Positions 17,908-62,400 of a stretch of DNA of 64,000 nucleotides are shown here, piece by piece. Numbering within the stretch: position 1 is the stretch's first letter; every line of letters begins with the position of its first letter. Origin of the DNA: Candidatus Aenigmatarchaeota archaeon (lineage in GTDB: Archaea; Aenigmatarchaeota; Aenigmatarchaeia; GW2011-AR5); assembly GCA_016187335.1 (NCBI GenBank), contig JACPJW010000001.1, positions 192,001-256,000 on the forward strand. The letters run 5' to 3'. The translations under genes were made by a program, and so were the position numbers. The notes beneath the pieces are model-generated. The model saw only the letters and a program-made list of their open reading frames with translations, made no database searches and had not been told where the DNA came from.

Positions 17908-17953
17908 AATCAGGAAACTTTCCGTTTTGATGAAACTTTTCTGAAAAGTTTCT
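17908..17953 (-). other. 23S BHB micro-intron, 46 nt (family-1 hairpin)
   Basis: UCAG/CUGA helix, GAAAC/GUUUC outer stem. Confidence 0.85.
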
Positions 17954-17993
17954 TTCTGACCGAGGTGAGCTGCACTTAGAGGGCGTCTGATAT

Positions 17994-18036
17994 TAAGTCT
18001 AGCAGAGCGTTCTTCATTGCTAGCCCTGCAGGATAT
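17994..18036 (-). other. 23S micro-intron, ~43 nt (helix 81 region)
   Basis: Insertion between duplicated GATAT; relaxed BHB; boundaries approximate. Confidence 0.7.
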
Positions 18037-18344
18037 CTTTTCAGACGCGTACCGCCCCAGCCAAACTGCCCATCTGTTACTGTCCCATAGCTATGCTATG
18101 GTAAGCAGTAAAGTCGAAAAAGGTCGGTGTTACACTTTCGACTCCACGCCACCTTACAGCAGCGCTTCGACGTCTCCCGACTACTCTATACAATCCCGAC
18201 TTTACCACAACAACAGACTGCAGTAAAGCTCCACGGGGTCTACTCTTCCCACTGGAGGTCCCTGGCCTAATCACCAGGACAATAGTTTCGCCGAGTTCCA
18301 GCCCGGGACAGCGACCACCTCGTTAATCTATCATGCAGGCCAAC

Positions 18345-18472
18345 GTTTACAGCCCCTTCCTGATATGTTCTTGCGCAGAAAGCGTAAGCTTTCTGGCATC
18401 TCAAAGAGCTTTGCTCTTTGCAGATTTCCGCAAGCGCTTTTCTTCCAAGAAAAGGGCTTCAAGAAAGGGCTT
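18345..18472 (-). other. 23S intron, 128 nt (helix 71 loop)
   Basis: AGCCC/GGGCU outer stem; contains family-2 and tri-loop hairpins. Confidence 0.8.
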
Positions 18473-18490
18473 ATTTAATTGGCAAGGGAT

Positions 18491-18563
18491 TTAGCGAACC
18501 CTCTGTCGCCATGACAGAACGTTGAGTCTCACGCAAGCGCCCTTTGCAGTGCAAAAGGGGTTT
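18491..18563 (-). other. 23S BHB intron, 73 nt (~Ec 1936)
   Basis: AGCG/CGCU helix, AACCC/GGGUU stem. Confidence 0.85.
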
Positions 18564-18585
18564 TACGCTACCTTAAGACCCTCAT

Positions 18586-18629
18586 CACCGACGAAGCACT
18601 GTCATCTGATCAGACGTGCTTCAGTCTAG
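18586..18629 (-). other. 23S micro-intron, ~44 nt (helix 69 loop)
   Basis: Insertion within the UAACUxUGA loop; boundaries +/-2 nt. Confidence 0.75.
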
Positions 18630-19218
18630 AGTTAGGGCCGGCCTACAGCGGGGCTTAGCCCGGTTGAAACCAGGTTTGACACACCACTAGTGGCCACGAC
18701 TCACTGACCATAGAAAGCCTTTCGACTTGTCGGTCAGTTACGTTTTTGTTAAACAGTCGGGTGGCCCTTGTCACTGCGACCTGCTTGTCCCCAAGCAGGC
18801 ATGCGTTCTACCGAAGATACCGCACTAATTTGCCGAATTCCCTGGGCTGGATTATCTCGAACACCTTCGCCTTCTCGGCGAGGGGCACCTGTGTCGGTTA
18901 TTGGTACGAGCAGCCCACACCGTAACCTGCCTGCTTTTTTAAGAGCTCCGGGAATCGCCCGAACTTCCCTAAAGGGAAGCCGTTCGCATCTTCCTCAGGT
19001 TCTCGCCATGATGACACTCCCCCGAGTTCAATGCTTAAGCATGGCGACGGCCATGCTCAGGATATCCCGAAGCGTTAGCGGCAGGATAAGTATCGGCTGG
19101 TTCCGGAATATTAACCGGATTTCCTTTCCCGCGCGTCTTCCTAAGAGCACGGTTAGGATCGACTGACCCCCAGAAGATAAACTTTACTGGGGAACCCTTG
19201 CCCCTCAGGTGGTAGGGA

Positions 19219-19542
19219 ATTGAGTGCAAGAAGAAGGTGAATTAGCGACTTTCACGAAGTGCTTTAATGAAATAAATACCTAATGTTAATCCGGATACAA
19301 GCTTCGCTGCACCGGTCCAAATAAAAGAAGGGTTACCGGTTGCTCGATAAGCCATAATATCGGTAGCTCCGTCTGCTAAAAGACTTACGCTACCGACTGG
19401 AATTCCTATAGCAGTAACGTATGGATTCATTTCCTGTGAAATTCTTTCAATTCTGTCTGGAGGTTTTTGAAATTCCATATGTCACTACTAATAGATGAGA
19501 ATTTAAAGCCTATCATTCGCTTTTTGGAGCTTCTTCCCGCAT
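19219..19542 (-). mobile_element. 23S intron, 324 nt, carrying a non-nuclease ORF
   Basis: Removal restores GGGCGAGAAUCCCUACC; near-BHB with UGC/GCA outer stem. Confidence 0.8.
19242..19478 (-). CDS. Intron-encoded 78-aa putative membrane peptide
   Basis: Two hydrophobic segments; TTTAAAT ~25 nt upstream of ATG. Confidence 0.65.
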   Translation of the reverse strand: MEFQKPPDRIERISQEMNPYVTAIGIPVGSVSLLADGATDIMAYRATGNPSFIWTGAAKLVSGLTLGIYFIKALRESR

Positions 19543-19729
19543 TTCTCGCCCTACTAATGCTACTCCCACCAGGATCCTCTTTGCTGCAAGGTCCACACTT
19601 CCTCACGGAAACGCTTCTGCCCTCGCAGCACGCCTCCTTACCACTTGCGATTGCTCACAAGTCCGCAGTATCGGTGGTTTCCTTAGCCCCGTCCATTTTC
19701 TCCGCCTTGACTCTCGATGGGTCCGCTAT

Positions 19730-19893
19730 TTCGCGGAAAGCCCCTTTTTCTTGTAAGAAAAAGTCCCTTGGGTTCAAAAAGAACTTTAACTCGCTTCGCT
19801 CGGATATTATTTTTAATAATATAGCGAGCATTAGCGAGCCTTGTGTCTTTCTTTTCCCAAGGGTTTTCTTTCTTCAGAAAGAAAAGGCTTTCT
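19730..19893 (-). other. 23S BHB intron, 164 nt (GTPase-associated centre, ~Ec 1095)
   Basis: CGCG/CGCG helix, GAAAG/CUUUC stem; nested hairpins. Confidence 0.85.
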
Positions 19894-20206
19894 TACGCGT
19901 TGTTTAAATGGTGGCTGCTTCTAAGCCAACATCCCCATTGTCTGAGAATCAGGACCAGATTCAGTGACACTTAGAAAACACTTTGGGACCTTAACTGCAG
20001 TCCGGGTTCGTTCCCTCTCGGATACCAGAATTACTCCGGCACCCTCACTCCCGCTCACGCGATAACGGATTCGGAGTTTGACAAGGCAGGTGGGGATCTC
20101 TCCCCTTGGCTGTCTAATCAGTGCTCTACCCCGTTATCTGCTAAGAGCGAGGCTGTCCTGAGAGACATTTCAGGAGGAACCAGCTATCACCAGATTCGAT
20201 TGGCTT

Positions 20207-20275
20207 TTGGTGTTCGCGAATAGCATACTGAATCTGCGAACAGCAAATTCAGAATAGCTTTAGCTATTCTCGAAT
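20207..20275 (-). other. 23S BHB intron, 69 nt
   Basis: GGUG/CACC helix, UUCG/CGAA stem. Confidence 0.85.
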
Positions 20276-20381
20276 TTCACCCCTAACCCCAGGTCACCCG
20301 AAGGGTTTGGACCACAACCGGTAACAGGCCTCCACCCGCCTTTCGGCAGGCTTCGCCTTGCCCAGGGCTAGATCATCTGGT

Positions 20382-21284
20382 CGCCCGGTCAGAGAATGAG
20401 TTTTATGAGGTTTGTATGAATATCAGATTTTGTTTTGCCCAATTCGCTTGGCTTTAAGCCATATGAATTGGCAGCGAATTTCAGAAGTTGTGATTTTGGA
20501 ATTCCCTTCCATAATCCATTTCCGCTAATTTTCACGCCTTCAACAAAGCCGATTTCCCTTTCAAATTTCTTTATGTTCTCAGGTTTTCTAAGCAACACTG
20601 CATCTTTCAGCATTGTTGGCTTGTACCCAAGTTTTTCAAGCAACCCGAAGTATTGTTTCCTAAGATTTGGATGTTCTGAATAAAGTTTTACGCATCTGTC
20701 GAAACGGAAACCGTATCTTGCCTTTCCGATATTGAAGATTACAGTTCCATCTCCGGTGAATGCGTATCTTAGAAATTGCTTTCCGAGTTCAGAGTTGCTT
20801 AAGATGAACTCCGGAATTATTGTTCCCGGATATTTGTTTTCTGCTTTGTTGTAGGCGAGCGTTCTGTAAGACGGCGAATAACTAATGAGCTCTGCGGCAG
20901 CCTTTCTGCTTATTCCACTCTTGACTTCCCATGAACCTTTGTAGATTCTTTTTCGAAGTTTAAGATGGAAAATCTCGAAGATGAGCCTTTCAAATTCCGC
21001 AACAAGTTCATTGGAGTTAGAAGTGAAAGAAATACTCCATAATCCCGATTTCTTGTTGCACCAAAGGCTGCCGTCTGTAATCAGAAGCCCTATTAGTTGA
21101 GCCATCTTGCCTTGTCTTTCATCAATCTCATTAATTTCGGTTTTGCCGAAATTTTGATTAATGAAATTTAATTTCATGCTTGTTATTAAGGCGAAGCGGG
21201 CTTATCTTGCTTTCGTGTCGAAGACCGAAAGAAAGAATATGTCCCGCTGAGCCAGATAACAAACCTCTAACTCACTCCCCGACT
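20382..21284 (-). mobile_element. 23S BHB intron, 903 nt, with homing endonuclease gene
   Basis: CCCG/CGGG helix, GUCGG/CUGAC stem. Confidence 0.9.
20389..21177 (-). CDS. Two-motif LAGLIDADG homing endonuclease
   Basis: LIGLLITDGSL and FLRYAFTGDGTV. Confidence 0.9.
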   Translation of the reverse strand: MKLNFINQNFGKTEINEIDERQGKMAQLIGLLITDGSLWCNKKSGLWSISFTSNSNELVAEFERLIFEIFHLKLRKRIYKGSWEVKSGISRKAAAELISYSPSYRTLAYNKAENKYPGTIIPEFILSNSELGKQFLRYAFTGDGTVIFNIGKARYGFRFDRCVKLYSEHPNLRKQYFGLLEKLGYKPTMLKDAVLLRKPENIKKFEREIGFVEGVKISGNGLWKGIPKSQLLKFAANSYGLKPSELGKTKSDIHTNLIKLIL

Positions 21285-22574
21285 TTCGGGTCTTATTCCA
21301 GTGACTTCCGCGCTTTCACACGGGGCGCCTCGCTGCCTGCGCGCGCTCGCTTTCGCTGCGGTTCCCTTAGTTAACCTTGCCACTAGAATAAACTCCCTGG
21401 CCCGTTTTTCAAAACGGACACCGCTTTTGTTTCTCTTGCGAGAACGTTAGGCGGCTAACTGTAGCTGCCAGGTTTCAGGTTCTTTTCAGCACCTATTACG
21501 GTTGCTTTTCAGCTTTCCGTCGCCGTACTAATGCGCTATCGGACTTGACGAATATTTAGGATTGGGTCTGAATGCGACCCGCGTTCCGACTCCAAATCCG
21601 AGGAATCGTACTCTGGATACCCGCCGTTGCACTTCCTGCCTTCCCTTACGCGGCTATCACGCTGTGTCGCGCCCCTTTCCAGGGGTCTTCGGGTCAGCAG
21701 GCAAGAGCAGGCACGGGTCCAAACACCACATTGCCCCGCACTCGTCGCGCAGGGCTTCGGTTTGTCCTGTTCCCTTTTCACTCGCCGTTACTGGGGGAAT
21801 CGAATTTCTTTCTTTTCCTGCCCTTACTAAAATGTTTTAATTTTGGGCGTTCGCCCTTCAGAACAGACTTCCGCATCTTTCAGATGCGGGATTTATCTCT
21901 GAAGTTGATGCCTATCGGCATTGGGCAATCTCCGGTTCAAAGGCTGCATGCGCCTACCCGGAGCTTATCGCAGCTTGCCACAACCTTCGTCGCATGTCAA
22001 GCCAGGCCATCCTCCTGACAGCTTGGGAGCTAGCTATCTTCTTTCCTAAGGCGTTCGCCGCTAACAAAGCTACACTTTAGGCATAGCTTTGCAAACGGCT
22101 AACTATTGCTCCAGCCTCGACCTGTGACTGCATCATATGCGTGAATAATCAGTATAATTATTTCGCTCTGCATTTCACCAATCAGCACGCTGACCGGCTC
22201 ATGAAATGAAAGGCAGACTCTGCTTTGAAACAAAATCCGCCGTTTTTATCAAATGGAAAGCCAAGTTCGCACGTTTTCCTGGATTGGCATGCAAACCTCT
22301 GATTTCCTTTCTGCTTTGGCAAACCGTTTTGGTACAACTTTTTTGAAAAGTTGTTCAGAGAAAGAACAGCATAGCGTCACGGCACAAAACGAGATAATTC
22401 TGCGCCACCTACACTGCAACCCGCACGCCCTGTCACGGCGCACAAAGCCACTCTGAACAGCTTCGGTTAACCAATCAACATGAATGTAAATTTTGAACTT
22501 TTCCCTTTTGAAGTTCTACAAATAGCGCAGGATTCCTGACCCTGACACGGTAACCTACATTATACAATATCAAA

Positions 22575-22592
22575 TATTAAAAGATTTTTTCG
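22575..22592 (-). promoter_or_regulatory. BRE/TATA promoter of 23S
   Basis: Minus-strand CGAAAAAATC-TTTTAATA; same TATA as upstream of 16S. Confidence 0.65.
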
Positions 22593-22628
22593 TAGATTCG
22601 TGGGTTAAATTAAACTACAGAAGAAGAA

Positions 22629-41639: not shown

Positions 41640-42290
41640 CTATAACCTCGCCACCCTGCCCGCATCAGTAAGCTGGTAGCCCTTGCCTTCTGCGACTTCT
41701 ATGAGGCCCATGTCCTTCAGCGCCTTGATGCTGCGGTATGCCATGGCGCGCGTGATTCCTAATTTGTCTGCGAGCTCTGCAACGTTCTGGTTGTCCTCTA
41801 TTTCTTCTAAAATTCGGAGCTGGCTTTTTGTGACTTTGAAGGGCAGTATGGGCAATATAACAGGGTTTTTGCTCTCCCATGGAACATAAAATATCTTCTT
41901 TATGCGGTCCCAGCGCTTGTAAGCCGCGAGTAGGACGCCGAGGGCTTTCGGCTTCTTGCCTGAGGTGATGTTTATGTAAATCTCATCCTTGTTCGGGATG
42001 GCATCAATAAGCTCCACGACCTCTGTTGCAGATGATACGGCGTCCAGGTGGTCAACGGATTTTTCCTTGATCTCGATGACCTTGCCGAGCGTTCTCTTTA
42101 TCTCAGCCACGGACTTTTCCTGCAAATCATCCTCGGGCTTTCTGTCCTTGATAAGGTATATCCTGTCGGCAGACAGCTTGTTCGCAAGAAGAAAAATGGA
42201 GTCGGATGTGTGCACAGTACTGACCAGCACCCTTGCCATATCCTCGTCTTTTTCCTGAACGCTTATATCGTTTACAGTATAATTTTCCAT
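41640..42290 (-). CDS. CARF (Csa3/DUF6293-like) plus winged-HTH transcriptional regulator
   Basis: Rossmann-like N-domain (ADRIYLI, IYINITSGKK) and C-terminal wHTH (VAELADKLGITRAMAYRSIKALKDMGLI). Confidence 0.8.
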   Translation of the reverse strand: MENYTVNDISVQEKDEDMARVLVSTVHTSDSIFLLANKLSADRIYLIKDRKPEDDLQEKSVAEIKRTLGKVIEIKEKSVDHLDAVSSATEVVELIDAIPNKDEIYINITSGKKPKALGVLLAAYKRWDRIKKIFYVPWESKNPVILPILPFKVTKSQLRILEEIEDNQNVAELADKLGITRAMAYRSIKALKDMGLIEVAEGKGYQLTDAGRVARL

Positions 42291-42674: not shown

Positions 42675-42893
42675 ATGATATGCGCTCTTTGCCCGAAAGG
42701 TAAAAGAGAAGTTATGGATGACAGCACTAACGTGGACCCTCGCGGCAGAAACCATATTCATGTCTTGCAGGTAAACAAGAAAGGCAAGATCGTCTGGGGA
42801 ATGTGCTATCTTGACAAGTTAGTGCCTTTCAGCAGGTTTGAGGATTTTACTGCTGATGTTTCCTGTCTGATTAAAGAAACCAAGAAAAAATAA
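42675..42893 (+). CDS. Small hypothetical protein
   Basis: MICALCPKG; GGTG RBS-like element. Confidence 0.5.
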   Translation: MICALCPKGKREVMDDSTNVDPRGRNHIHVLQVNKKGKIVWGMCYLDKLVPFSRFEDFTADVSCLIKETKKK

Positions 42894-42983
42894 TGGACTG
42901 GTCGGGACTTTCACCAACTTTGCTTCCTCTTTTGATCAAACTTTGGAGCAGCAAAGTTTGCTTTGAACCCGAAGCCTCCTGGC
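42894..42983 (-). tRNA. Orphan 3' half of a tRNA-Ala-type gene with a 54-nt 59/60 intron (42908-42961)
   Basis: G-CCAGG-AGGCU-UCGGG-UUCAAA[intron]U-CCCGA-CCAGUCC-A; BHB UUCA/UGAA; no 5' half nearby. Confidence 0.8.
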
Positions 42984-42996
42984 TATAATGTCGCAT

Positions 42997-44379
42997 CTAT
43001 TTCACAAAGCCCTGCTTGATATCGCCGATGTCAAAAAGCAGTACATTGTTTTCCCTGATTCTTTTGCTGAAACTCCTGGCAAAGACGGCATAGTAGTCTT
43101 TTCTGTCTTTTTTGAAAAGCTCAACCTGCTCTGATTTTTTCTTTAAGCCGCTTATTACAGCGTTAGGATCAGCATTGTCTTTCCATTTGCATTCGCAGAA
43201 CAGCATTTCTTTTGTTTTTTTGTTGAAGGCTACCATGTCCATTTCTTCCTGCCTGCTCCACCATCTGCCTATATTTGTGGCGCTGAAAGGGAGCCTGCCC
43301 TTTGCATTGGCTTCTATCAGAAACTCCCTGCATACGCCTTCGAATGCCTTTCCCACAAATGCCGTGAAATTACTCCTTACGCTTTCCGTTACAGGCCCGG
43401 AATTCTCTATTTCCAGATAAGACATGTTAGGGTACACAAAACGGAACCAGAAATTGAAGAAATTGTCATTTATGAAATAAAGGGTCTTCTTGCTTTTCGG
43501 CTTCATCTCTGTGACAGGATTTTCCTTCTTTATGAGCCCCATGCCTTTTTCAAGCACGTTCAGGAAGTAACTGAGCGAGGTCTGCTTTATGCTTATCATG
43601 TCGGCTATCTCATTTGTCTTTGTCCTTCCTTGTGCTATTAGCTTCATTATATTGAAGTATGTCGCAGGATTCGGAAGCTCTGTTCTTATGAGCATATCAG
43701 GCTCGTTGTAAAGCGCGCCTCTTTTTGAAAGTATGCTCGCCTCTATGCTTTTTATCACATCCACCTTCGCATCCGCTTCCAGGAGATATTTTGGCGTCCC
43801 TCCGAATACTGCATAGATTTCCACTAATTTTTCTGCCGGAACAGAAGGGAACCATTCGAACAAATGCCTGAATTTGAGCGGCTCCAGGTCTATCTGGCCT
43901 GTGCGCCTGCCGTAGAGCGGTGCCGAATACTCGAAAAGCTTGTGCATCATTCCTATCGAAGAGCCCATGACAGCAAGGAAAACTCCTGATTTCTTGTGGT
44001 GGCTGTCTATCTGCTTCTGAAGAATCGAGGGTACAGATTTGTTTATAGTCAGGAATCGCTGGAACTCATCAATCACGATAACAGTCCTTTCCTGCATTCC
44101 AAGCATGCGGTCGAAAATCTCGTCCCATGCCGGCTCTCCAATAAAACTCAGTCCGAATTTTTCGTTAAGGTTTCTTGCAAAAATCAGCCTGAGCTCCTTG
44201 TCATCTATGTCAGGCACAAAGAAGTAGAGCGCTTTCTTTCCTGATATGAACTTTTCGATAAGGGCTGTCTTGCCGACACGCCTCCTGCCTATTACTGATA
44301 TGAACCTGAAGCCATCGTTCTTGTGCTCTTTGGCAAGAAACCCCAGCTCGTCCGCCCTGTTTATAAACTTTATTGTCAT
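42997..44379 (-). CDS. Archaeal AAA ATPase with DUF234 C-terminal domain
   Basis: FINRADEL, GRRRVGKT, IDEFQ, GRRTG, FGGTPKY, GRWW. Confidence 0.9.
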   Translation of the reverse strand: MTIKFINRADELGFLAKEHKNDGFRFISVIGRRRVGKTALIEKFISGKKALYFFVPDIDDKELRLIFARNLNEKFGLSFIGEPAWDEIFDRMLGMQERTVIVIDEFQRFLTINKSVPSILQKQIDSHHKKSGVFLAVMGSSIGMMHKLFEYSAPLYGRRTGQIDLEPLKFRHLFEWFPSVPAEKLVEIYAVFGGTPKYLLEADAKVDVIKSIEASILSKRGALYNEPDMLIRTELPNPATYFNIMKLIAQGRTKTNEIADMISIKQTSLSYFLNVLEKGMGLIKKENPVTEMKPKSKKTLYFINDNFFNFWFRFVYPNMSYLEIENSGPVTESVRSNFTAFVGKAFEGVCREFLIEANAKGRLPFSATNIGRWWSRQEEMDMVAFNKKTKEMLFCECKWKDNADPNAVISGLKKKSEQVELFKKDRKDYYAVFARSFSKRIRENNVLLFDIGDIKQGFVK

Positions 44380-44436
44380 GACAATTATTGTGATGACAAT
44401 AATATTTAAAGCTATCGTACTCCCGGCGAGCATGTG

Positions 44437-44553
44437 AAAAGAACTTTGTCTCCACCACATAAATGTGGTGGCTTCATTATTACCAAAGTTCTTTTACACG
44501 CCACATTCCACCTGTATTACCACCGTTTAAAAACGGTGGAATGTGAGTGTTTC
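44437..44553. repeat. Nested palindromes resembling IS200/IS605-type ends
   Basis: aaaagaactttg...caaagttctttt; ccaccaca-taaa-tgtggtgg; caccgttt-aaaaacggtg. Confidence 0.55.
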
Positions 44554-44555
44554 AA

Positions 44556-44856
44556 TGGACTGGCTGGGATTTTCAGAACTTTTCACCGTTTTCCTCGAAG
44601 AACATCAGTTCTTCGGGATCTCGGAGAACTATCGTTCTCCACAGATGATCAAACTTTTGTGAAAAGTTCGTTTGAACCCAGAGCCTCCTGCTATCTTGTT
44701 TGCCTCTTTTGATCGAACTTTGGAGTAGCAAAGTTCGTTGCAAAGCAGGCGATCTTCCTTCTCCGAACCCTTTTTGCTTCGCAAAAATCGTTCACGGAAA
44801 AACTTCTTTCCGTAGACGCTTTCTTTTTAAGAAAGGGTCTGTTGATCTACCAGCCC
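44556..44856 (-). tRNA. tRNA-Ala(UGC) with three introns (D-loop ~44759-44840; 37/38 44693-44738; 59/60 44570-44670)
   Basis: Spliced product is a 72-nt cloverleaf GGGCUGG...CCUGC-UUUGCAA-GCAGG...CCAGUCCA; BHB helices at 37/38 and 59/60. Confidence 0.9.
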
Positions 44857-45019
44857 GTGGCTAAAGCATAATATCCTAGGGCTTAAATAAATTGGTTTAA
44901 AATTGCCTGAAACAGCATCATATCCTTTAAATATTCACCCAATACATAGGACATCCTATAAACTTTCTTAAAAGAGAATTAGAGAATTTAACCAAAGAAT
45001 CTGTATTCAAAGTGATACC

Positions 45020-47189: not shown

Positions 47190-47794
47190 GGGCTGCATCT
47201 TGTATATCCTCCGCTACCGAAAAGGGTTTTAATCCTGTTTTTCAAGAAAGTTGCATGAAAAAGCAGGTTCTGAAGCGCATGCCTGAAGAAACGCAGAAAG
47301 TGCATGCCGCTGATTTTGAAAAGGAAAAGAAGAAACTGGAACAGAGCTTCAAAAAGAAAGAAATGCCCTTCCGCCTGTTCTGGGTGAAGTGAAAATATCT
47401 ACTATTTCTGTTAAAACCTGTAGATAGCTTCGGCTAAATCGTATCGATAAAAAAATCCAGCTTTCTTTGCGTTTTGGAAAAAATAGCGCGCAAAGGTACA
47501 GGTAGTTCCGGGTTACGTCCCGGAACTCACGGAGCCGCAGCTCCGATGAATTGGCATTCTATCTCATGGCCCTCTTTTGATGAAACTTTTTTGAAAAGTT
47601 TCAGAGGAAAGCACACTGACTGTCGCAGAACCCTTTCGGATTCTTTTGATAAAACTTTTCTTGAAAGAAAAGTTTTTAGGAGGTGATCCAGCCGCACGTT
47701 CCCGTACGGCTACCTTGTTACGACTTAGCCCTCCTTGCAGACAATTGATTCGACTTATTCAGCATAAGCCTCACCAAAAGTCCACTCGGATGGC

Positions 47795-47826
<32 letters not shown>

Positions 47827-47840
47827 CATTCAGCGAAAGA

Positions 47841-48030
47841 TTCCACGATTATGAGATCATCATAGTGCTGCTTCTACTCGACCAAAGACATCCGCCCATA
47901 CTTTTAATCACCAGACCGCTACGGATTTCTTTCCGTAGACGCTTTCTTTTTAAGAAAGGGTCTTCATAGTCAAGCACTTCTTCTGTCTTTGATTTTGTAG
48001 CGCCAAAAAATCATTTGGATCTCACATCCA
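47841..48030 (-). other. 16S intron, 190 nt (~Ec 1360s)
   Basis: Relaxed BHB UCAU/GUGG; contains a family-2 hairpin. Confidence 0.8.
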
Positions 48031-48389
48031 TGATGACCTTCGCTTACTAGGGATTCCGGCTTCACGTGGGCGAATTGCAGCCCACGATCTGAACTAGGCG
48101 CCGGTTTGAGAGATTGGCTTCACCTCACGGTGTTGCATCCCATTGTCCGACGCATTGTAGGCCGCGTGTAGCCCCGGAAATTTAGGCCATACTGACCTGC
48201 CGTAGACCGCTCCTTCCTCTGGCTTAGCGCCAGCGGTCCCGCTAAAGTGCATGCCCTGCGTACAGGACATTCGCAACTAGCGGCACGGGTCTCACTCGTT
48301 TCGTGACTTAACACGACACTTCACAGCACGAGCTGACGACGGCCATGCAGCACTTCTCAGTTTGTTAGGTAACCCCTTTAGAGTGACCC

Positions 48390-48962
48390 TCATTCTACTG
48401 TCTTCCCGGGTGAGGTCTCCAGAGAGGAATCCTCATATTTCCAAAGAATGCGTTTGCCTTCATTCTTTCTTGCCACACTACGCGCGGATTCAAGGTCGCG
48501 CAATGTTTCCCTTATTGTGCTTGGCATCAATCTTAATCCAAGGCACAATTCTCCTATGCTCCACCACTTATCATTTTTTCTGATCAACGCAACTATCTTC
48601 TCTTTCGTTGAAGCTTTGTTGCGCATGAAGCCGCCTTTCATCCCTTCTCTTTCCAAGAGAAGCTTCGCCCATTGATTCTTAATCGGTTCCGCAAATTCCC
48701 CTGCAATGGAATAAATCTCCCTGAAAGCATTCCTATGCAGCTTGAAGCCGATGTTTTCTCTTTTGACGAACTTTTTGCTTGCCCAGCCATGCGCTTTGCA
48801 GACCTCAAAAATAGTGTTAAGCTGATTTCTGTTTCTGCTTGACTGAACAAGCACAGGCGACTCTTCAGCTATAAAGCTGAATTCAAACTCGATTAGTGGA
48901 AGGAGTATAGAAGCTGTAAGTTTTTGCCTTTCTTTGCTCGCTCGTAAACACTTATCATCCAT
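48390..48962 (-). CDS. Degenerate single-motif LAGLIDADG-like domain plus winged HTH
   Basis: LTASILLPLIEFEFSF in the motif position; C-terminal SIGELCLGLRLMPSTIRETLRDLE. Confidence 0.55.
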   Translation of the reverse strand: MDDKCLRASKERQKLTASILLPLIEFEFSFIAEESPVLVQSSRNRNQLNTIFEVCKAHGWASKKFVKRENIGFKLHRNAFREIYSIAGEFAEPIKNQWAKLLLEREGMKGGFMRNKASTKEKIVALIRKNDKWWSIGELCLGLRLMPSTIRETLRDLESARSVARKNEGKRILWKYEDSSLETSPGKTVE

Positions 48963-49015
48963 AGTACTGTATACTTTGGATGATTTATTGGTTTCCGTAC
49001 TCGAGTATTCCTCTT
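48417..49015 (-). mobile_element. 16S BHB intron, 599 nt (~Ec 978), with ORF
   Basis: CCAG/CUGG helix, AGAG/CUCU stem. Confidence 0.9.
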
Positions 49016-49035
49016 TCCTGGCGTTGAATCCAATT

Positions 49036-49075
49036 TTCGGCCCAAGCCAATGATATACGTTTCACTGAACTCGGT
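49036..49075 (-). other. 16S BHB micro-intron, 40 nt (~Ec 957)
   Basis: CGGU/GCCG helix. Confidence 0.8.
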
Positions 49076-49114
49076 AAACCGCAGCCTCCACCCCTGGTAG
49101 TGCTCCCCCGCCAA

Positions 49115-49726
49115 TTAGGGGAAAGTAATCCCATCATTTAGCAGCTTCAATCTGAGCTGCTTATCCTTGTGCCAACTTCCGATGTTTTTGCAGAAGTATA
49201 GAAGATTGTTCTTCCTTGTCAGCCTGAATTCCCAGACATTACCGCAAAAGGTAATGTTTGTTGGCTGGCAACTTTGATCAATCAAAACCTGTCTAATGAA
49301 TTCCAAAGATTCCCTGTTTTTCTGGCTGAACGAGATGTATTTCTGTTTCGCTGTATCTGGTTTCTTTGGAAGTCCTCCTTCTGCATCAAAGAATCCTTTC
49401 AAATAGTGAATTTGAATTTTCACTTTCTGTTCCTTTATGCATTTTGGAGTATCCCAGAATTCCTGCGGTGTTTCGAAATCGGATATATCGAGAATTTTTT
49501 CAACATAGCTTCTTCCGTTAATCCTCAGTATTTCCGTTCCGTTTGCATGTTTTGTTATGGTGCCGCGAGCTTCAAACTCTTTATGGAAAAGAGTTTGCAA
49601 AAGGCGTAACCATGATGTCTCTCTTTGTGCTATTTTAATTTCGTAGTTTTTTCCTTTCCTGACATCTATGGATGCGTCTCTCATAGCACCTAACAGATAC
49701 GCAAGTTCTGGGCTGACAGGCTTCAC
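49115..49726 (-). CDS. Two-motif LAGLIDADG homing endonuclease
   Basis: LAYLLGAMRDASI and YLKGFFDAEGGL. Confidence 0.9.
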   Translation of the reverse strand: MKPVSPELAYLLGAMRDASIDVRKGKNYEIKIAQRETSWLRLLQTLFHKEFEARGTITKHANGTEILRINGRSYVEKILDISDFETPQEFWDTPKCIKEQKVKIQIHYLKGFFDAEGGLPKKPDTAKQKYISFSQKNRESLEFIRQVLIDQSCQPTNITFCGNVWEFRLTRKNNLLYFCKNIGSWHKDKQLRLKLLNDGITFP

Positions 49727-49778
49727 TCTATAACTTTGGCAGCAGGGATATTTAAGTGTGGTATCGGGGTTACTTTCT
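49115..49778 (-). mobile_element. 16S BHB intron, 664 nt (~Ec 919), with homing endonuclease gene
   Basis: AGGG/CCCU helix, GAAAGUAA/UUACUUUC stem. Confidence 0.9.
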
Positions 49779-49908
49779 TTCCCTTAAGTTTCAGCCTTGC
49801 GGCCGTAATCCCCAGGCGGCCCGTTTAACGCCTTCGCTTCGGCACCACGGATCCACGAAGGATTCGTGACACCAAACGGGCAACGTTTACAGCTAGGACT
49901 ACCGGGGT

Positions 49909-49990
49909 CTTTAGGACCCTTTTGCGATTTTATTCGCGGTAGCGTGATTTCCGTAGACGCTTTTACGCGCTTGCATGCGTAAAAGGGTCT
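49909..49990 (-). other. 16S BHB intron, 82 nt (Ec 793/794)
   Basis: UUAG/CUAA helix, GACCC/GGGUC stem. Confidence 0.88.
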
Positions 49991-50001
49991 ATCTAATCCC
50001 G

Positions 50002-50035
50002 AATGAACTCGACTAAGATTTTCGTCTTAGTTCGA
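50002..50035 (-). other. 16S micro-intron, ~34 nt (~Ec 781)
   Basis: Hairpin insertion; imperfect BHB. Confidence 0.75.
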
Positions 50036-50090
50036 TTCGCTCCCCTAGCTTTCGTCCCTCACCGTCGGACCCGTTCCAGCCAAGCGCCTT

Positions 50091-50134
50091 ACGTGGAAAC
50101 TTTTCCGTTTTGATTGAATTTTTTGAAAAGTTCA
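50091..50134 (-). other. 16S BHB micro-intron, 44 nt (~Ec 722)
   Basis: GUGG/CCAC helix; family-1 hairpin. Confidence 0.88.
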
Positions 50135-50338
50135 CGCCACAGGTGGTCCCCTACGGATTAAAAGATTTTACCCTTACCCGTAGAGTACCCTTGGCCTCTC
50201 CCGGTCCCAAGCCCGATAGTATCTCCAGCAAGCCTTACAGTTTGCTGCAAGATTTCACCAAAGACACATCGAGCCGGCTACGGACGCTTCAGGCCCAATA
50301 AACGTGACTACCCCTCGTGGCGCGGTTATTACCGCGGC

Positions 50339-50389
50339 ATCCAGATCCTTTTCCGTCAACGCTTTTGCGTCTTCAGACGTAAAAGGGTT
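50339..50389 (-). other. 16S BHB micro-intron, 51 nt (530 loop, ~Ec 523)
   Basis: CCAG/CUGG helix; family-2 hairpin. Confidence 0.88.
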
Positions 50390-50428
50390 GGCTGGCAACC
50401 GTCTTGCCCACCACTTATTCCTCCACCT

Positions 50429-50483
50429 ATGTAATCCTTTCTTCCGTTTCTTTCGCAAGCGTTTTCTTTTCGAAAGAAAAGGC
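50429..50483 (-). other. 16S helix-17 insertion, probable intron, ~55 nt
   Basis: GUAA/UUAC helix; family-2 hairpin. Confidence 0.65.
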
Positions 50484-50550
50484 TTTTACAGTGGAGAAAA
50501 GACAGCGCTAAGCGCTGCCACTCAGGGTTCCCTTGTCAGGCTTTCACCCA

Positions 50551-50600
50551 GTTTGCGAACTTTTCAGTTCCGTTTTGATGGAACTTTTCTGAAAAGTTCC
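50551..50600 (-). other. 16S BHB micro-intron, 50 nt (~Ec 374)
   Basis: UUGC/GCAA helix, GAAC/GUUC stem; family-1 hairpin. Confidence 0.88.
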
Positions 50601-50606
50601 TTGCAA

Positions 50607-50639
<33 letters not shown>

Positions 50640-51342
50640 CGTTCATGTCTCAGAACGCATCTCCGGGCTATCGCTCTCACGACCCGTACGGATTACAGCC
50701 TTGTTGAGCAATTATCTCAACAACAAGCTAATCCGCCGCAGTCCCATCGTTCAGTGCATTGCTGCTTTCAGCGAAGATGCCTTCCAGCAATTATCGCCTA
50801 TCGGGTATTATTCCCACTTTCGCAGGATTATCCCCGTCTGAACGGCAGGTTAACTACGTGTTACTGAGCAGTGCGACGAGGTCTTGCACCTCACGTCTCG
50901 CATGGCTTAGCCGAACCCTGATAAAGGTAGTCTCCGGCGGGATCAACCGGAATTGTGCGGGAAAACACAAACCCTTGTGGTTATGTGTCCCTACCATTTG
51001 ATAGAGTCTTGCCTACCCATACCTTTGTTCACTTGTAAGCATGCTTACCAGCTCATATTTATCATGCAGCGGAAGTGTTTCTTCACGAAAAAGGCTGTTG
51101 CCTTAAAATCCGAAACGACGCCTTGCTGTCATGAATAATCATTTCAGTTTTGACTCATCCGCTTTTTACAGCAGAATGTGCCGCGTAATTATTATCCAGT
51201 CAAAAGCGTTCGTAAGAACTGCTTCGCTTTAACGAGCAAGCCAGCTAGCTAGAAGTATAGTTGCCAAACTATGCCCGTCTCAATACTTTCAAGGCACGAT
51301 TCTTAGAACCGCACCACACCATCAATAAATAAAGAAGGGAAC

Positions 51343-53873: not shown

Positions 53874-53940
53874 TATTTTTGATGTTTTTTGATGTTTTTT
53901 GATTAAACTTTTTTCGAAAAAGTTTAGGAGGTAGAAAAAA

Positions 53941-57967: not shown

Positions 57968-57975
57968 CGGAGGTT

Positions 57976-59364
57976 ATGATTGTGGACGTTGAATCGCTGA
58001 AAGAGTACAGGACTATTGCAAGCGTAGCGGGGCCTTTGATATTCGTTGAGAAAACGCATCCCGTCGGCTACGGCGAGCTTGTAAGCATAACAATGCCTGA
58101 CGGCGGAAAAAGACTAGGGCAGGTTCTTGACACGTCCAGCGATATTGTAGTTGTCCAGAGCTTTGAGGGGACAAGCGGCATAGACAGGACTGCAAAGGTG
58201 CGGTTTCTCGGCGACGTCATAAGGCTCAAGGTGGGCGAGGAAATGCTCGGCCGCGTCTTTGACGGGACAGGAAAGCCGGTTGACGGAAAGCCCGAGATAA
58301 TTCCCGAGGAAGAGTCAGATATAACAGGCAGCGCGATAAACCCGTACTCCAGAGCATCGCCGGAGGAGTTCATACAAACCGGCATATCGACAATAGATTT
58401 CATGAACACGCTTGTCAGGGGCCAGAAGCTCCCTATTTTCTCCGGTTCCGGCCTGCCTCACAACGATATAGCGCTGCAGATAGCAAGGCAGGCAAAAGTC
58501 TTGGGCCACGAAGAAAAGTTCGCCGTTGTCTTTGCGGCTATGGGCATTACCAACGAAGAGGCGAAAAAATTCATAGCAAGCTTTGAGGAAACAAACTCGC
58601 TCGAGCGCGTCGTTGTGTTCCTTAATCTCGCTAACGACCCGGCCATAGAAAGGCTGATAACGCCGCGCCTCGCGCTGACAGCCGCGGAATTCCTGGCTTA
58701 CAAAAAGGGCATGCACGTGCTGGTTATACTTACTGACATGACAACTTACTGCGACGCGCTGAGGGAAATAAGCGCGGCAAGGGAAGAAATACCCGCAAGG
58801 CGCGGATATCCGGGGTATATGTACACGGACCTCGCGACGATATACGAGCGTGCGGGCATGATAAAGGGAAACAAGGGGAGCATAACGCAGCTGCCTATCG
58901 TTACCATGGTGGGCGACGACATAACGCATCCGATTCCCGACCTTACGGGTTACATCACTGAAGGGCAGATTGTGCTTTCCCGCGAACTGCACAGGCGGGG
59001 AATTTATCCTCCTATTGACGTGCTGCCTTCTTTATCACGCCTTATGAACCAGGGCATCGGCAAAGGGAAGACCAGGGAGGACCACAGGCAGGTAAGCGAC
59101 CAGCTGTACGCGTTTTACGCCGAGGGCCGCGACCTCAGGAGCCTTGCATCCATCGTGGGCGAGGAAGCGCTTTCGGAAAGGGACAAGAGGCTTCTTGCGT
59201 TCGCGGAACAGTTTGAACTGCGCTTCGTCAACCAGGGAATAAGGGAGGACAGGAGCATTGAGCAGACAATGCAGCTGGCATGGCAGTTGCTGTCAATGCT
59301 TCCGGAAGAGGACCTGACAAGGATTTCTTCCGAATTCAAGGCGAAGTATTACCCGAAAAAATAA
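57976..59364 (+). CDS. atpB: A-type ATP synthase subunit B
   Basis: [37 protein letters not shown]. Confidence 0.98.
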
Positions 59365-59380
59365 ATGGTACGGGAAAATT

Positions 59381-60010
59381 ATGGCAGCAATGAACGTGAA
59401 GCCGACCAGGTCCGAGCTTATCAAGCTCAGGAAAAGCATAAAGCTGGCCGAGTCAGGGTACAAGCTCCTGAAAAAGAAAAGGGACGGCCTTATTCTGGAG
59501 TTTTTTAACGCATTGAAGGACGCAAAGGACGTGAGAAAGGAGCTGAACGAAAAATACAATATTGCGTACAAAAAGCTGCAGCATTCCATAGCTTTGGACG
59601 GGATCGTGGAAATAAAGACGCTGTCAATGGCGCTGAAGGAAAGGCCGTCGGTGGAATTGGAAGTAAGGAACGTGATGGGCGTCAGCATACCTGTCATAAA
59701 GCACGGGACCATAAGGAAGAGCCTGATGGAGCGCGGATACGGCCTGTTCTCGTCGTCAATAAGGATGGAGGAAACTGCCAAGTCCTATGAAGAGCTTCTG
59801 GAGCTTATTGTGAAGACCGCGGAAACGGAAACAAAGCTGAGGAATATTCTTATTGAGATAGAAAAAACGAAGAGGAGGGTGAATTCACTGGAGTACATAG
59901 TGATTCCCCGTCTGAAGGAAGCTGCCGCCTTCATCGCCTTCCGCCTGGAAGAACTGGACCGTGAGAACATTTTCAGGCTGAAGAAAATAAAGCAGAAGAT
60001 AACCGTTTGA
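59381..60010 (+). CDS. atpD: A-type ATP synthase subunit D
   Basis: KPTRSEL, LLKKKRDGL, KTKRRVNSLE. Confidence 0.96.
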   Translation: MAAMNVKPTRSELIKLRKSIKLAESGYKLLKKKRDGLILEFFNALKDAKDVRKELNEKYNIAYKKLQHSIALDGIVEIKTLSMALKERPSVELEVRNVMGVSIPVIKHGTIRKSLMERGYGLFSSSIRMEETAKSYEELLELIVKTAETETKLRNILIEIEKTKRRVNSLEYIVIPRLKEAAAFIAFRLEELDRENIFRLKKIKQKITV

Positions 60011-60028
60011 TGATTTCTGGATGATATT

Positions 60029-60412
60029 ATGAGCCACGGGAAATTCGCCACTGCAATCAATTGCATAGACGGGCGATGCCAGGTTCCTGTATCTGCCTGG
60101 ATGAAAGAACATTTTGGAATTGATTATGTCGACAGAATAACCGAGCCGGGACCGGACAAAGTGCTTTCAGGCGGCTCCGCGGAAAATATAGAATCAATAA
60201 AGCGCAAAGTGATGGTTTCCGTAAATGCCCACAAATCCCGTGTAATTGCAATTGCAGCCCATCACGACTGCGCGGGCAATCCCGTTTCCATGGAAGACCA
60301 CTGGGAACAGCTGAGAAAATGCGTCGTGATTGTGAAATCATGGAAGCTTCCTGTGAAAGTAGTCGGTCTCTGGGTAAACGAAGAATGGAACGTAGAAGTT
60401 GTTGATGCCTGA
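60029..60412 (+). CDS. Putative beta-carbonic-anhydrase-like metalloprotein
   Basis: NCIDGR...HHDCAG (Cys/His/Cys). Confidence 0.75.
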   Translation: MSHGKFATAINCIDGRCQVPVSAWMKEHFGIDYVDRITEPGPDKVLSGGSAENIESIKRKVMVSVNAHKSRVIAIAAHHDCAGNPVSMEDHWEQLRKCVVIVKSWKLPVKVVGLWVNEEWNVEVVDA

Positions 60413-60454
60413 AATTCAAAGATAAATTAAAACGTAAGCAAGCCGTTTCCTGGT

Positions 60455-60858
60455 TTACGTCAGCAATTTCTTTTCCAGCAGTTCCTTTACGTAAATGTCC
60501 ATATTTTCCAGTTTTTCCAGTTCGTTGTATGAAACCCACCTGAATTCTGTGTTGTCGTCGTTGAGCTTCGGTTCGCCATTAATTTTCCCTAAATACGTTA
60601 ACCGGACAACATGCCTTCCCGGCACGCGCAAAATATCCTGCGCAGCAATCAATTTAGGCTCCTCTTCAAGAACAAGCCCTGTCTCTTCCTTTACCTCGCG
60701 CTTTAAGTTCTCTAAAAGCGTCTGGCCGGGATTGATTCTTCCGCCGGGAATGTCCCACCTTGCGCCGACTTCGGGGTATTTGTCAGCAGATCTTTTTACT
60801 ATCAGGTATTTTCCTTCCCTGTTCTTCAGCAGTATCTTGACGCCGACTTGCAGTTCCA
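60455..60858 (-). CDS. NUDIX hydrolase
   Basis: PGGRINPGQTLLENLKREVKEETG. Confidence 0.92.
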
Positions 60859-60937
60859 TGACATCACAACCCTTTTGTTCACTTCGTTCACAAAATCCTT
60901 GCAAACAGAATCGAAAGATTCTGTTGCACAGCAGAAC

Positions 60938-61477
60938 TTAGTTCTGTTTGTGACGGAAAAGTTGCTTCACAACCTTGTAATGAAGCTGCACTTCATTTTT
61001 GGATAATTTTTTTATTTCAATGAAACGCAGCTTTGCCTCAAAATCTGAATCAGCAAAAAGCCTTATTCCCTTGCCGAGGACAACAGGCTCCACATCAAGG
61101 TAAATTTCGTCAACAAGCCCTTCCTTCATGAAAGAAGCGTTGAGCGTTCCGCCGCCGCCTATGAACGCTGTTTTGAATCCTTTTTTTTTCAAAAACCGCA
61201 AAACCTCTTCCGGCTTCTTATTGGTAAAAACGACTTTATCGCCCCATTTGTTTTCTATTTTTTGCTTTGTCATAACAACGTTAAAGCAAGAATAAGGGAA
61301 AGTGCCGTCCTTTACGCTAATCTCATATGTTCTTCTTCCTATAATCATATTGCCGCATTTTTTCATCAGTTTTTCAAAGCTTTTCCAGGAATTCTTAGAA
61401 ACAAACCATACGTCATCGTCTTCTTTGGCGATTAAGCCGTTAGCGGTCATCGCCATGTATAAAATGACTTTCATCAA
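60938..61477 (-). CDS. Dihydrofolate reductase/RibD C-terminal-like protein
   Basis: AMTANGLIA, IGRRTYE, GGGTL, GLVDE. Confidence 0.9.
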   Translation of the reverse strand: MMKVILYMAMTANGLIAKEDDDVWFVSKNSWKSFEKLMKKCGNMIIGRRTYEISVKDGTFPYSCFNVVMTKQKIENKWGDKVVFTNKKPEEVLRFLKKKGFKTAFIGGGGTLNASFMKEGLVDEIYLDVEPVVLGKGIRLFADSDFEAKLRFIEIKKLSKNEVQLHYKVVKQLFRHKQN

Positions 61478-61478
61478 A

Positions 61479-61751
61479 TCACAGCTTTACGTCAAATCCC
61501 TTGAAATTGCCCAGAGCCTCTTCCCATGTAACGCTGACGTCGTCTATCTTCGCCCTCGGGGGGCCCTGCCTTATTTTCTCCACCAGCTGCTCTATTTTAT
61601 CTTCATGGCCTTCCACAATCACTTCCACCCTGCCGTCGTCCAGGTTTTTCACAAAGCCGTTTAAGCCGAGCAGTTCAGCGTTCTGTTTCGTAAAAGAGCG
61701 GAACGAAACGCCCTGAACCCTTCCGCTGATATAAATGCAGCATCTCTTCAT
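61479..61751 (-). CDS. acyP: Acylphosphatase
   Basis: GRVQGVSFR, GFVKNLDDGRVE. Confidence 0.95.
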   Translation of the reverse strand: MKRCCIYISGRVQGVSFRSFTKQNAELLGLNGFVKNLDDGRVEVIVEGHEDKIEQLVEKIRQGPPRAKIDDVSVTWEEALGNFKGFDVKL

Positions 61752-61835
61752 GGAATAATGTTGCAGCCGAAAACATAAAAACGGAAGAAAGAATTTGAGG
61801 AGCTGCTCGGGTTGCTTCCAGCGATTGCAGTGAGA

Positions 61836-62135
61836 CTAAGCCTGTTTTCTCTTTTTCCTCTTGATTTTTACCGAGCCGTCTTCAACCTTAACTTCAAGCT
61901 CATCTGCCTTGACGTTTTCTGGCAGCGACATGCTTCGCCTGAATTCTTTCTGGAACGCCTCTTCTTTGTAAAAACCTTTTCTCTTCTCCACTTTCCTTCC
62001 TTTCTTCTCCGCTGAGATATTGATGAAGCCCTTGTCTATTGAGACCTTTATCTCGTCCCTGCTGAATCCCGGCGCCGCTATGTTTATCTCCTCGGGCTTT
62101 TCTTCCCAGTAGAATCTGAACGGCTTCTTTGCCAT
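61836..62135 (-). CDS. Small heat-shock protein (Hsp20)
   Basis: APGFSRDEIKV, FRRSMSLPENV. Confidence 0.88.
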   Translation of the reverse strand: MAKKPFRFYWEEKPEEINIAAPGFSRDEIKVSIDKGFINISAEKKGRKVEKRKGFYKEEAFQKEFRRSMSLPENVKADELEVKVEDGSVKIKRKKRKQA

Positions 62136-62229
62136 AAAAACACCAGAAAATATTCTTGAGGATAAAAATAAATTGTTATTTTTGGTCAAACTTTCCTTCT
62201 TTGATTAAACTTTCTTTTAAGAAAGTTTA

Positions 62230-62400
62230 TGCGGGAGACGAGATTCGAACTCGCGAAGCGAATCGTCACCTTTTCCGTGCACGCTTTTGCACAGCAAAAG
62301 GGTGCTAACGCACTACCCGTTTGCGAACCTTCCCTTTTGATTGAACTTTTGGGAAAAGTTCACCTCAAGGTAGCCCCTTTGGCCGCTTGGGTACCCCCGC
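62230..62400 (-). tRNA. tRNA-Leu(GAG) with two introns (37/38 62319-62362; variable arm 62262-62304)
   Basis: Spliced product is an 84-nt cloverleaf; BHB CGUU/GACG in the variable arm. Confidence 0.88.

Follow-up and report, generated by a model that had tools for sequence, protein, structure and literature searches.

Conserved hairpin modules inside the introns of stable RNA genes, and outside them, in a Candidatus Aenigmatarchaeota genome

Why should both ribosomal RNA (rRNA) genes of one archaeon be about twice as long as their Rfam models? This question is raised by a stretch of 64,000 nucleotides from a Candidatus Aenigmatarchaeota archaeon, called the window below (C2:192001-256000 of genome G000, which comprises 1.01 Mb in two contigs, is 91% complete and has 47% G+C). 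Both genes are interrupted by introns with bulge-helix-bulge (BHB) motifs, and the compact ones among them are built on hairpin modules, here called F1 and F2, which recur in transfer RNA (tRNA) and RNase P RNA introns and, as solo copies, at sites that are not introns. F1, F2 and at least one further family, F3, are best explained as conserved self-folding intron cores. The two genes are:

16275..22038, minus strand, 23S rRNA gene (Rfam RF02540, 1886 bits; 5764 nt against a 2987-position model; 12 inserts, 2845 nt)
47678..50953, minus strand, 16S rRNA gene (Rfam RF01959, 1073 bits; 3276 nt against 1478 positions; 10 BHB introns, about 1.8 kb)

The rRNA inserts were defined by alignment to intron-poor relatives (G013 for both 16S and 23S) and by alignment to the Rfam covariance models (CM). 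A preliminary description of the window had put the number of introns in stable RNA genes at about 30, and this count was reproduced from the Rfam/CM alignments and the relatives, with 10 introns in 16S, 12 in 23S, two in tRNA-Leu, three in tRNA-Ala, one in a tRNA 3'-half copy and at least two in RNase P RNA. All module starts given there were also recovered, at offsets of 0-3 nt, as follows:

17925, 22327, 47575, 50108, 50573, 53897 and 62335, F1
42930, 44646, 44707, 47644 and 62201, F1 variants
18426, 44765 (inverted), 44808, 47931, 49949, 50351 and 62273, F2
13771 and 50451, F2-like

An additional F2, absent from that earlier list, was found at 13984-14022 within the RNase P RNA. The view that two module families are common to 16S, 23S, tRNA and RNase P RNA introns and to non-intron sites was supported.

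F1 consists of a 9-bp hairpin (two variable outer pairs, AACTTTT, a 2-5-nt loop and AAAAGTT) followed by ATCAAAA and then usually by (C/A/G)GRAA. F2 has the form NNNC-C-CTTT...AAAG-C-GNNN plus RCGGAAA and is often extended by a conserved A-rich stretch; the module tails are 90-96% invariant. The exact F1 pattern occurred in 73 copies in G000, a tolerant search gave 104 oriented copies, and the F2 pattern was found in 35 copies. Across the phylum, the exact F1 pattern was present in 54 of 301 genomes and the reversed pattern had no match in any of the 301. The F2 pattern was present in 41 of 121 genomes, against two matches of the reversed control in the same 121. Its spread differs by family, with F2 found in 10 of 11 genomes of one family and in none of 24 of another.

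The stems of both modules covary. The two variable outer pairs of F1 were Watson-Crick in 100 and 98 of the 104 copies (shuffle means 41 and 28, maxima 58 and 45), with four pair types, and pairing ended exactly at the third position. Covariation of the F2 outer stem around a conserved mismatch had been claimed from inspection and was confirmed, the three variable pairs being Watson-Crick in 30, 33 and 33 of 34 strict copies (shuffle maxima 28, 21 and 20), and more than 10 helix sequences flank the invariant C.C mismatch (G.G on the plus strand). A sister module with AGCTTTT...AAAAGCT arms and an AGCAAAA tail was observed in genome G170 (L058-L064), where it alternates with F1 inside long T-loop introns.

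The BHB scan used the canonical geometry, in which the 5' cut follows 4 nt of exon and 2 nt of bulge, and the 3' cut follows the 4-nt complement and again 2 nt of bulge. A central helix H of 4 perfect base pairs was found in 19 of the 22 rRNA inserts, at most 3 nt from the aligned boundary, and 12 of the 22 also had an inner helix h' of at least 4 bp (1.1% for random placements of the same length). The 23S F1 intron was a thirteenth case, in which the BHB sets a 46-nt intron (17953-17908) whose removal leaves the hairpin loop found in the relative G009. The claim that each intron adds a site-specific 4-nt arm was borne out, with TTGC/GCAA, GTGG/CCAC, TCAG/CTGA, TTAG/CTAA and CCAG/CTGG all found. 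Removal of the inserts restored the conserved mature RNA, as judged by CM and pairwise alignments to the Rfam models, to intron-poor relatives and to the intron-less tRNA-Leu anticodon arm of the congener G001. Given these BHBs, it is unlikely that the inserts would stay in the mature RNA. The rRNA introns that contain a module or an F3 body are:

17908..17953, minus strand, F1 three-arm micro-intron of 46 nt in 23S (H TCAG/CTGA, 4 bp; h' 10 bp; h 6 bp; the minimum free energy (MFE) fold is the canonical hBHBh')
50551..50600, minus strand, F1 three-arm micro-intron of 50 nt in 16S, at about E. coli 374 (H TTGC/GCAA; h' 11 bp; h 4 bp; MFE fold hBHBh', z = -4.1)
50091..50134, minus strand, F1 three-arm micro-intron of 44 nt in 16S (H GTGG/CCAC; h' 9 bp)
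49909..49990, minus strand, F2 three-arm intron of 82 nt in 16S, at about E. coli 781/793 (H TTAG/CTAA; h' 9 bp)
50339..50389, minus strand, F2 intron of 51 nt in 16S, region 515-530 (H CCAG/CTGG; F2 match 50351-50390; the CM alignment shows an insert of 54 nt)
50428..50484, minus strand, F2-like intron of 57 nt in 16S (H TGTA/TACA; h 9 bp)
47841..48030, minus strand, 16S intron of 190 nt containing the F2 module 47931-47963 (H 4 bp; h 8 bp)
18346..18471, minus strand, 23S intron of 126 nt with an F2 module (match 18426-18472; h' 12 bp; h 6 bp; H 3/4)
20207..20275, minus strand, 23S intron of 69 nt of the third family, F3 (H GGTG/CACC)

At the site of the 44-nt intron (50091..50134), the genomes G020, G016 and G005 have introns with unrelated bodies. 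The F3 body type also occurs at the 16S sites 578, 586 and 1051 in G004 and G005.

The compact module introns are all arranged in the same order: 1 nt, arm A, loop, arm A', tail, a second 3' arm A'', the 4-nt exon complement and 2 nt. This anatomy was read from the 16S introns 50600-50551, 50134-50091 and 49990-49909 (F2), the 23S intron 17953-17908, and three T-loop introns and one tRNA-Leu D-loop intron elsewhere in the genome. Arm A is pyrimidine-rich and A' purine-rich, and A'' matches A better than A' does; in F2, A' always has the C.C mismatch and A'' is perfect. The pairing of A with A'' constitutes h', immediately beside the bulge, and in the 82-nt F2 intron the 5' arm of the module forms this helix with a second, distal 3' arm that is a perfect copy. 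The RNAfold MFE structures of two F1 introns were exactly hBHBh', with A and A'' paired. Longer introns have further hairpins after the tail and before A'', an F2 copy in inverted orientation, or composites in which F1 and F2 are nested (F1-in-F2).

These features suggest how the introns would be removed. Arms A and A'' would form the inner helix h', and the 4-nt adaptor would form the central helix H with the exon, leaving two 3-nt bulges to be cut by the single splicing endonuclease before the exons are rejoined by RtcB. We propose in addition a folding switch, in which A' probably holds A during transcription and is displaced once A'' emerges, its hold being weakened in F2 by the C.C mismatch. 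The endonuclease was typed as a single alpha-type EndA (202 aa, N and C domains, PF02778 and PF01974), and an RtcB ligase is encoded in G000 (528 bits). In DPANN lineages, alpha4-type EndAs with an extra loop have been noted to accompany heavy tRNA gene disruption (PMC5829648). The RtcB gene itself matched in two pieces (G000:C2:765179-766518, outside the window), the first 26 model positions lying in a separate frame.

The same modules were found in tRNA and RNase P RNA genes, where introns hid the genes from standard tools. ARAGORN counted no tRNA over the window, Rfam missed the tRNAs, and the RNase P RNA scored under its threshold. An ARAGORN match of tRNA-Leu(GAG) was mis-typed because of its two introns, and the Rfam tRNA scan of 42700-45000 gave no match at E <= 1 because of multiple introns. 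The genes and introns, assigned by alignment, are:

62229..62401, minus strand, tRNA-Leu(GAG) gene with an F1 intron and a variable-arm F2 intron (module 62273-62305; alignment to G001 and match to the F2 regular expression)
62319..62362, minus strand, 44-nt F1 intron of this tRNA-Leu(GAG), at 37/38 (relaxed BHB; fold and alignment to G001)
44556..44856, minus strand, tRNA-Ala(UGC) with three introns, one in the D-loop, one at 37/38 and one of 101 nt in the T-loop, aligned to the intronless tRNA-Ala of the genome
42890..42985, minus strand, tRNA 3'-half copy whose T-loop intron contains an F1 variant, immediately following an ATPase open reading frame (ORF) of 487 aa
13745..14071, minus strand, RNase P RNA (Rfam RF00373, 48 bits, E = 3.7e-12, below the gathering score; 48-nt insert, 3' block missing)

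The tRNA-Ala(UGC) introns contain an F2 (44808-44840), an inverted F2 (44765-44799, plus strand) and two F1 variants. In the RNase P RNA, the inserts hold the F2 at 13984-14022 and an F2-like module in the 3' part (about 13745-13800). Three T-loop introns in the genome are almost identical to one another. The ATPase gene mentioned above (42997-44460, minus strand, ATPase_2 plus DUF234, 487 aa) lies between the full tRNA-Ala and the very similar 3'-half copy, a layout typical of insertion into a tRNA gene.

Comparison with relatives showed that the introns turn over. Among nine genomes of the family and order, 16S introns recurred, with patchy presence, at sites 307, 355, 454, 735, 789, 801, 918, 929, 1051, 1245, 1441 and 1566 (reference numbering), several of which coincide with Thermoproteales loci (PMC4496867). 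At site 355, both G000 and G005 (16S 84% identical) have an F1 intron, with compensatory changes in H (TTGC/GCAA against TCGC/GCGG) and in all three arms, while site 735 holds unrelated intron bodies in four genomes. One orthologous tRNA site has F1 in G001 and F2 in G000. Because one site can hold different modules and the sites coincide with old hot spots, the pattern is explained in part by intron bodies having been replaced.

Whole introns were also found to be present or absent. The tRNA-Leu(GAG) gene of G001, whose DNA is otherwise 70-75% identical to that of G000, matched at 100% of 38 + 104 nt, a stretch that takes in the F2 intron and the first part of the trailer hairpin, and had no 44-nt F1 intron; the filled and empty junction showed neither repeat nor microhomology. 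In G005, the D-loop of a different tRNA contains a copy of this F1 core identical at 43 of 44 positions. The DNA runs that contain the 16S stretch of G000 were groundwater metagenomes. A run from another groundwater (X7) includes a relative, about 98% identical, in which a perfect BHB micro-intron of 28 nt (h' 8 bp, H CGGC/GCCG) occupies 48196/48197, the 1205/1213 hot spot; this site is empty in G000 and has introns of LAGLIDADG size in G004 and G005. These cases answered the question of presence or absence at orthologous sites, since the tRNA-Leu intron, the 28-nt intron and the 16S sites among the nine genomes are all polymorphic. Closely related introns occur in different genes and positions, within and between genomes, as in transposed intron families. 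The inverted F2 in the tRNA-Ala intron and the nested F1-in-F2 composites indicate insertion at the DNA level.

The distribution of the modules in other genomes shows their usual habitat. In G035, all 17 F2 copies lie in tRNA genes, and in G170 this holds for six of seven F1 loci, mostly as the first module of T-loop introns. Because the modules of these two genomes are almost confined to tRNA introns, introns appear to be their general habitat, rather than RNA genes being the target of a free palindrome. The load of exact F1 copies was 73 in G000, 21 in the half-assembled G001 (0.5 Mb) and at most 15 in every other genome.

About 60 of the 104 F1 copies in G000 lie outside RNA genes and have no BHB, and look like an expansion in this genus. 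No BHB was found for 58 of 63 solo copies in the scan, and two reached a score met by 0.5% of random sites, which rules out that solo copies are hidden introns. They are depleted in coding sequence and present in all classes of spacer. Those in or near the RNA genes and protein genes of the window are:

22327..22354, minus strand, solo F1, 276 nt from the 23S 5' end
47575..47602, minus strand, solo F1 in the 16S 3' flank
47640..47677, minus strand, F1-like hairpin starting 2 nt past the 16S 3' end
53897..53926, minus strand, solo F1 between protein genes
62190..62228, minus strand, F1-like hairpin directly after the tRNA-Leu 3' end (first 15 nt identical in G001, up to the end of the G001 contig)

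Two further roles of solo copies were considered and rejected. Reading the copies that follow stop codons as introns of messenger RNA was discarded, the downstream genes having their own Shine-Dalgarno (SD) sequence and ATG. F1 as a promoter (a palindromic B recognition element/TATA) had no upstream positional peak; upstream regions showed TTTAAA/TTAAAT, with the SD sequence GGTGA peaking at -9 to -11, and the flanking pairs of F1 covary, which is not required of a protein half-site. At two places outside the window (G000:C2:419562-419650 and C1:15066-15123), two or three complete F1 units follow one another head to tail with a period of 30 nt, the array starting at a stop codon. A further copy, 15 nt upstream of tRNA-Met (G000:C2:738990-739045, outside the window), is flanked by a 16-nt direct duplication of the tRNA 5' end, the sole duplication-like footprint and an isolated case.

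Taken together, these data suggest that F1, F2 and F3 are the conserved cores of a proliferating family of protein-less BHB micro-introns, copied among BHB-competent sites and, in this genus, also to places outside RNA genes; we regard this reading as evenly poised between right and wrong. The cores would be copied between permissive sites, and would sometimes replace the intron body at an old hot-spot site; at other times a whole intron would come or go. In this genus they would also accumulate as unspliceable solo copies at gene ends. Splicing of the module introns is predicted from their BHBs, and mobility as such is what we infer. A bolder version, which we consider unlikely but worth stating, is that with F1 and F2 the mobile units of protein-spliced archaeal introns become recognisable for the first time. 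Such tiny units would be protein-less and copied by the host, with their own inner helix and A' to A'' switch, so that only a 4-nt exon match would be needed to found an intron, and the solo copies would be a donor or waste pool. If it were true, the arrival of BHB introns in tRNA, rRNA, RNase P RNA and mRNA genes would be explained.

Several observations weigh against proliferation by copying. The preliminary description had suggested a search for HUH transposase or reverse transcriptase genes, and neither was found: G000 and G001 had no Y1/HUH transposase (PF01797), and no reverse transcriptase (PF00078, E <= 0.1) was detected in G000, which is 91% complete, or in G001. There was no target-site duplication and no clean element end; at the two alignable filled and empty solo sites, only the hairpin itself was the indel. 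The intron-less tRNA-Leu anticodon arm occurs only in G001 among 41 genomes of the family, so that the difference may be a gain or a loss. RNA was checked on 16S in three metatranscriptomes and one DNA run. Contigs skipped exactly 47841-48030; these are rRNA of the whole community with 90% likeness to the 16S, and their joints at intron borders are not assignable to G000. Finally, the conservation of the modules across the phylum (about 80-86% 16S identity), and the sharing of about half of the solo copies with a congener of 70-75% DNA identity, point to a function under purifying selection more than to a selfish repeat.

A transposase or reverse transcriptase as mobiliser was accordingly rejected, HUH transposases being absent from both genomes and reverse transcriptases not found. 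PF01797 was present in 16 of the 41 family genomes with no correlation to F1 load, and no F1 lay at insertion sequence (IS) loci. A terminal-inverted-repeat signature of the type of miniature inverted-repeat transposable elements was not found in the comparison of filled and empty sites. A 45-aa fragment with one stop codon (G000:C2:791846-791974, outside the window) gave a 16.7-bit match to the C-terminus of Y1 transposases and may be an IS200/IS605 relic.

The strongest competitor, which we hold to be improbable to the same degree as the mobile-unit version, is that the modules are host-functional RNA hairpins, serving in 3'-end formation or termination, stabilisation or protein binding, which introns have reused as an inner helix and which spread by ordinary recombination or gene conversion. 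The position of the solo copies speaks for a host function and counts at the same time against copying. About 14 of the 43 solo F1 with a co-directional upstream ORF begin 0-3 nt after the stop codon; over the whole genome, the frequency of ACTTTT and of CCCTTT has its peak at positions +1 to +5 after stop codons; and further F1 hairpins, which have a T-run in the 5' arm, begin 2-3 nt past tRNA and 16S 3' ends. The sense orientation is favoured as well, by 27 to 4 near tRNA T-loops and by about 2-3:1 between co-directional genes. Conservation of the sequence throughout the phylum, the lack of a detected transposase and the comparison with the congener are in line with this: among 17 G001 copies with an identifiable orthologous interval, about 8 had an F1-like hairpin in G000 and about 9 did not, so that about half were kept in place despite 25-30% DNA divergence.

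A host function accounts less well for other features. The density of F1 in spacers (0.35-0.82 per kb) was similar for convergent, divergent and co-directional gene pairs, values too alike to decide on a terminator role, and the majority of genes have no copy. Nearly all modules of G035 and G170 sit within tRNA introns, and a terminator at such a place would do harm. The tails, and not the hairpins alone, are common to intron and solo copies, while the tandem, nested and single inverted copies resemble products of insertion.

Somewhat more doubtful is a free mobile palindrome that inserts anywhere, the survivors in essential RNA genes happening to be excisable and so becoming introns de novo. 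The large share of solo F1 copies without a BHB, the introns that consist of module plus adaptor and nothing else, the presence or absence of a whole intron in tRNA-Leu with junctions that lack microhomology, and the expanded load in this genus would all fit such an element. However, a single insertion would be unspliceable, since the solo unit has neither A'' nor the 4-nt complement of the exon, and we know of no mechanism that makes an inverted 4-nt adaptor. One site can hold different modules, the modules of the relatives sampled in detail are almost only in introns, and the copies in RNA genes show a sense-orientation bias. The rRNA intron sites are moreover hot spots in other genomes and in Thermoproteales (PMC4496867). 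The preliminary description had advanced an intron-generating mobile palindrome; its modules, its adaptor, the polymorphism and the absence of convergence stood, whereas the mobile element itself found no support in a HUH transposase, a reverse transcriptase or a duplication, or in the intron-only habitat of the relatives.

Chance likeness of A/T-rich, low-complexity hairpins, suggested by arms that are T-run/A-run palindromes of a composition common in spacers, was excluded by the reversed controls (none in 301 genomes for F1, against 73 forward copies in G000; two in 121 for F2, against 35), the near-invariant tails and variable-pair covariation far above the shuffles, and is extremely improbable.

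Archaeal introns of related kinds have been described, and BHB splicing, hot-spot rRNA loci with hairpin-only introns (PMC4496867) and tRNA-to-tRNA transposition in Thermoproteales (PMC4090602) are already known. The last was reported by Fujishima et al. (2010), as summarised in PMC4090602, and the transposed introns served as a positive control in a later study (bioRxiv 10.64898/2026.10.13.758758). As here, a BHB is needed at the junctions, and PMC4090602 describes the mechanism as unknown and as probably operating on DNA. In the present system, by contrast, what is shared across a DPANN phylum is a modular core whose stems covary and whose tail is invariant; the system also extends to rRNA and RNase P RNA introns, includes about 60 unspliceable solo copies at gene ends, and allows family bodies to be swapped at a single site.

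The 16S introns of Thermoproteales are known from 13 loci over many taxa, including 374, 781, 919, 978 and 1205/1213 (Jay and Inskeep 2015, PMC4496867). A limited set of loci, several of them common to the present genomes, and a mix of LAGLIDADG-encoding and short hairpin-only introns are points of likeness (PMC4496867). Here, in contrast, there are 10 introns in one gene and 12 in the 23S, and sharing of a core with tRNA introns and spacers is not described in that study (PMC4496867). In Asgard archaea, many independent tRNA intron gains at BHB-competent sites were reported with the route of arrival left open; recurrent sequence families were almost absent there (1.5% at 80% identity), whereas they are dominant here (bioRxiv 10.64898/2026.10.13.758758).

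REP/RAYT and IS200/IS605-derived palindromic elements of bacteria also offer a comparison. They combine a short hairpin with a conserved single-stranded flank, occur in tens of copies, lie mostly just after genes and form tandem or inverted pairs, and F1 resembles this pattern of a short hairpin in many copies at gene ends. They differ in that no Y1/HUH transposase was found in G000 or G001 and no link to IS ends was seen in relatives; to our knowledge, REPs are not intron cores. Neither Rfam nor a full-text literature search yielded a phylum-wide core that occurs in introns of tRNA, rRNA and RNase P RNA alike, solo copies of such a core, or the swapping of bodies at a fixed site.

The route by which archaeal BHB introns reach new sites has been called "still unknown" (PMC4090602), and "how they arrive remains open" (bioRxiv 10.64898/2026.10.13.758758). 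The present lineage supplies a core that can be tracked by simple patterns over hundreds of genomes, together with sites that are cleanly filled or empty, fixed sites at which bodies have been swapped, and a solo pool. Rates of gain, loss and replacement, donor-recipient relations and possible protein partners are therefore directly testable. For practical work, the 10 introns in 16S and 12 in 23S, together with the multi-intron tRNAs, defeat standard annotation, and the rRNA introns break up universal primer sites.

The window also contains four large rRNA introns, and LAGLIDADG ORFs were found only in three of these; the module introns of 30-190 nt have no ORF. LAGLIDADG proteins are ordinary in archaeal rRNA introns. 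The large introns are:

20382..21284, minus strand, 23S intron of 903 nt with a LAGLIDADG ORF of 262 aa
16908..17785, minus strand, 23S intron of 876 nt with a LAGLIDADG ORF of 279 aa
49115..49778, minus strand, 16S intron of 664 nt with a LAGLIDADG ORF of 203 aa
48417..49015, minus strand, 16S intron of 599 nt with a 190-aa ORF (48390-48962) that has no Pfam match

A 216-aa protein with a CARF-like domain (HFX_2341_N / Card1 CARF) and a winged helix is encoded at 41640-42290 (minus strand); proteins of this type are usually linked to cyclic-oligoadenylate signalling.

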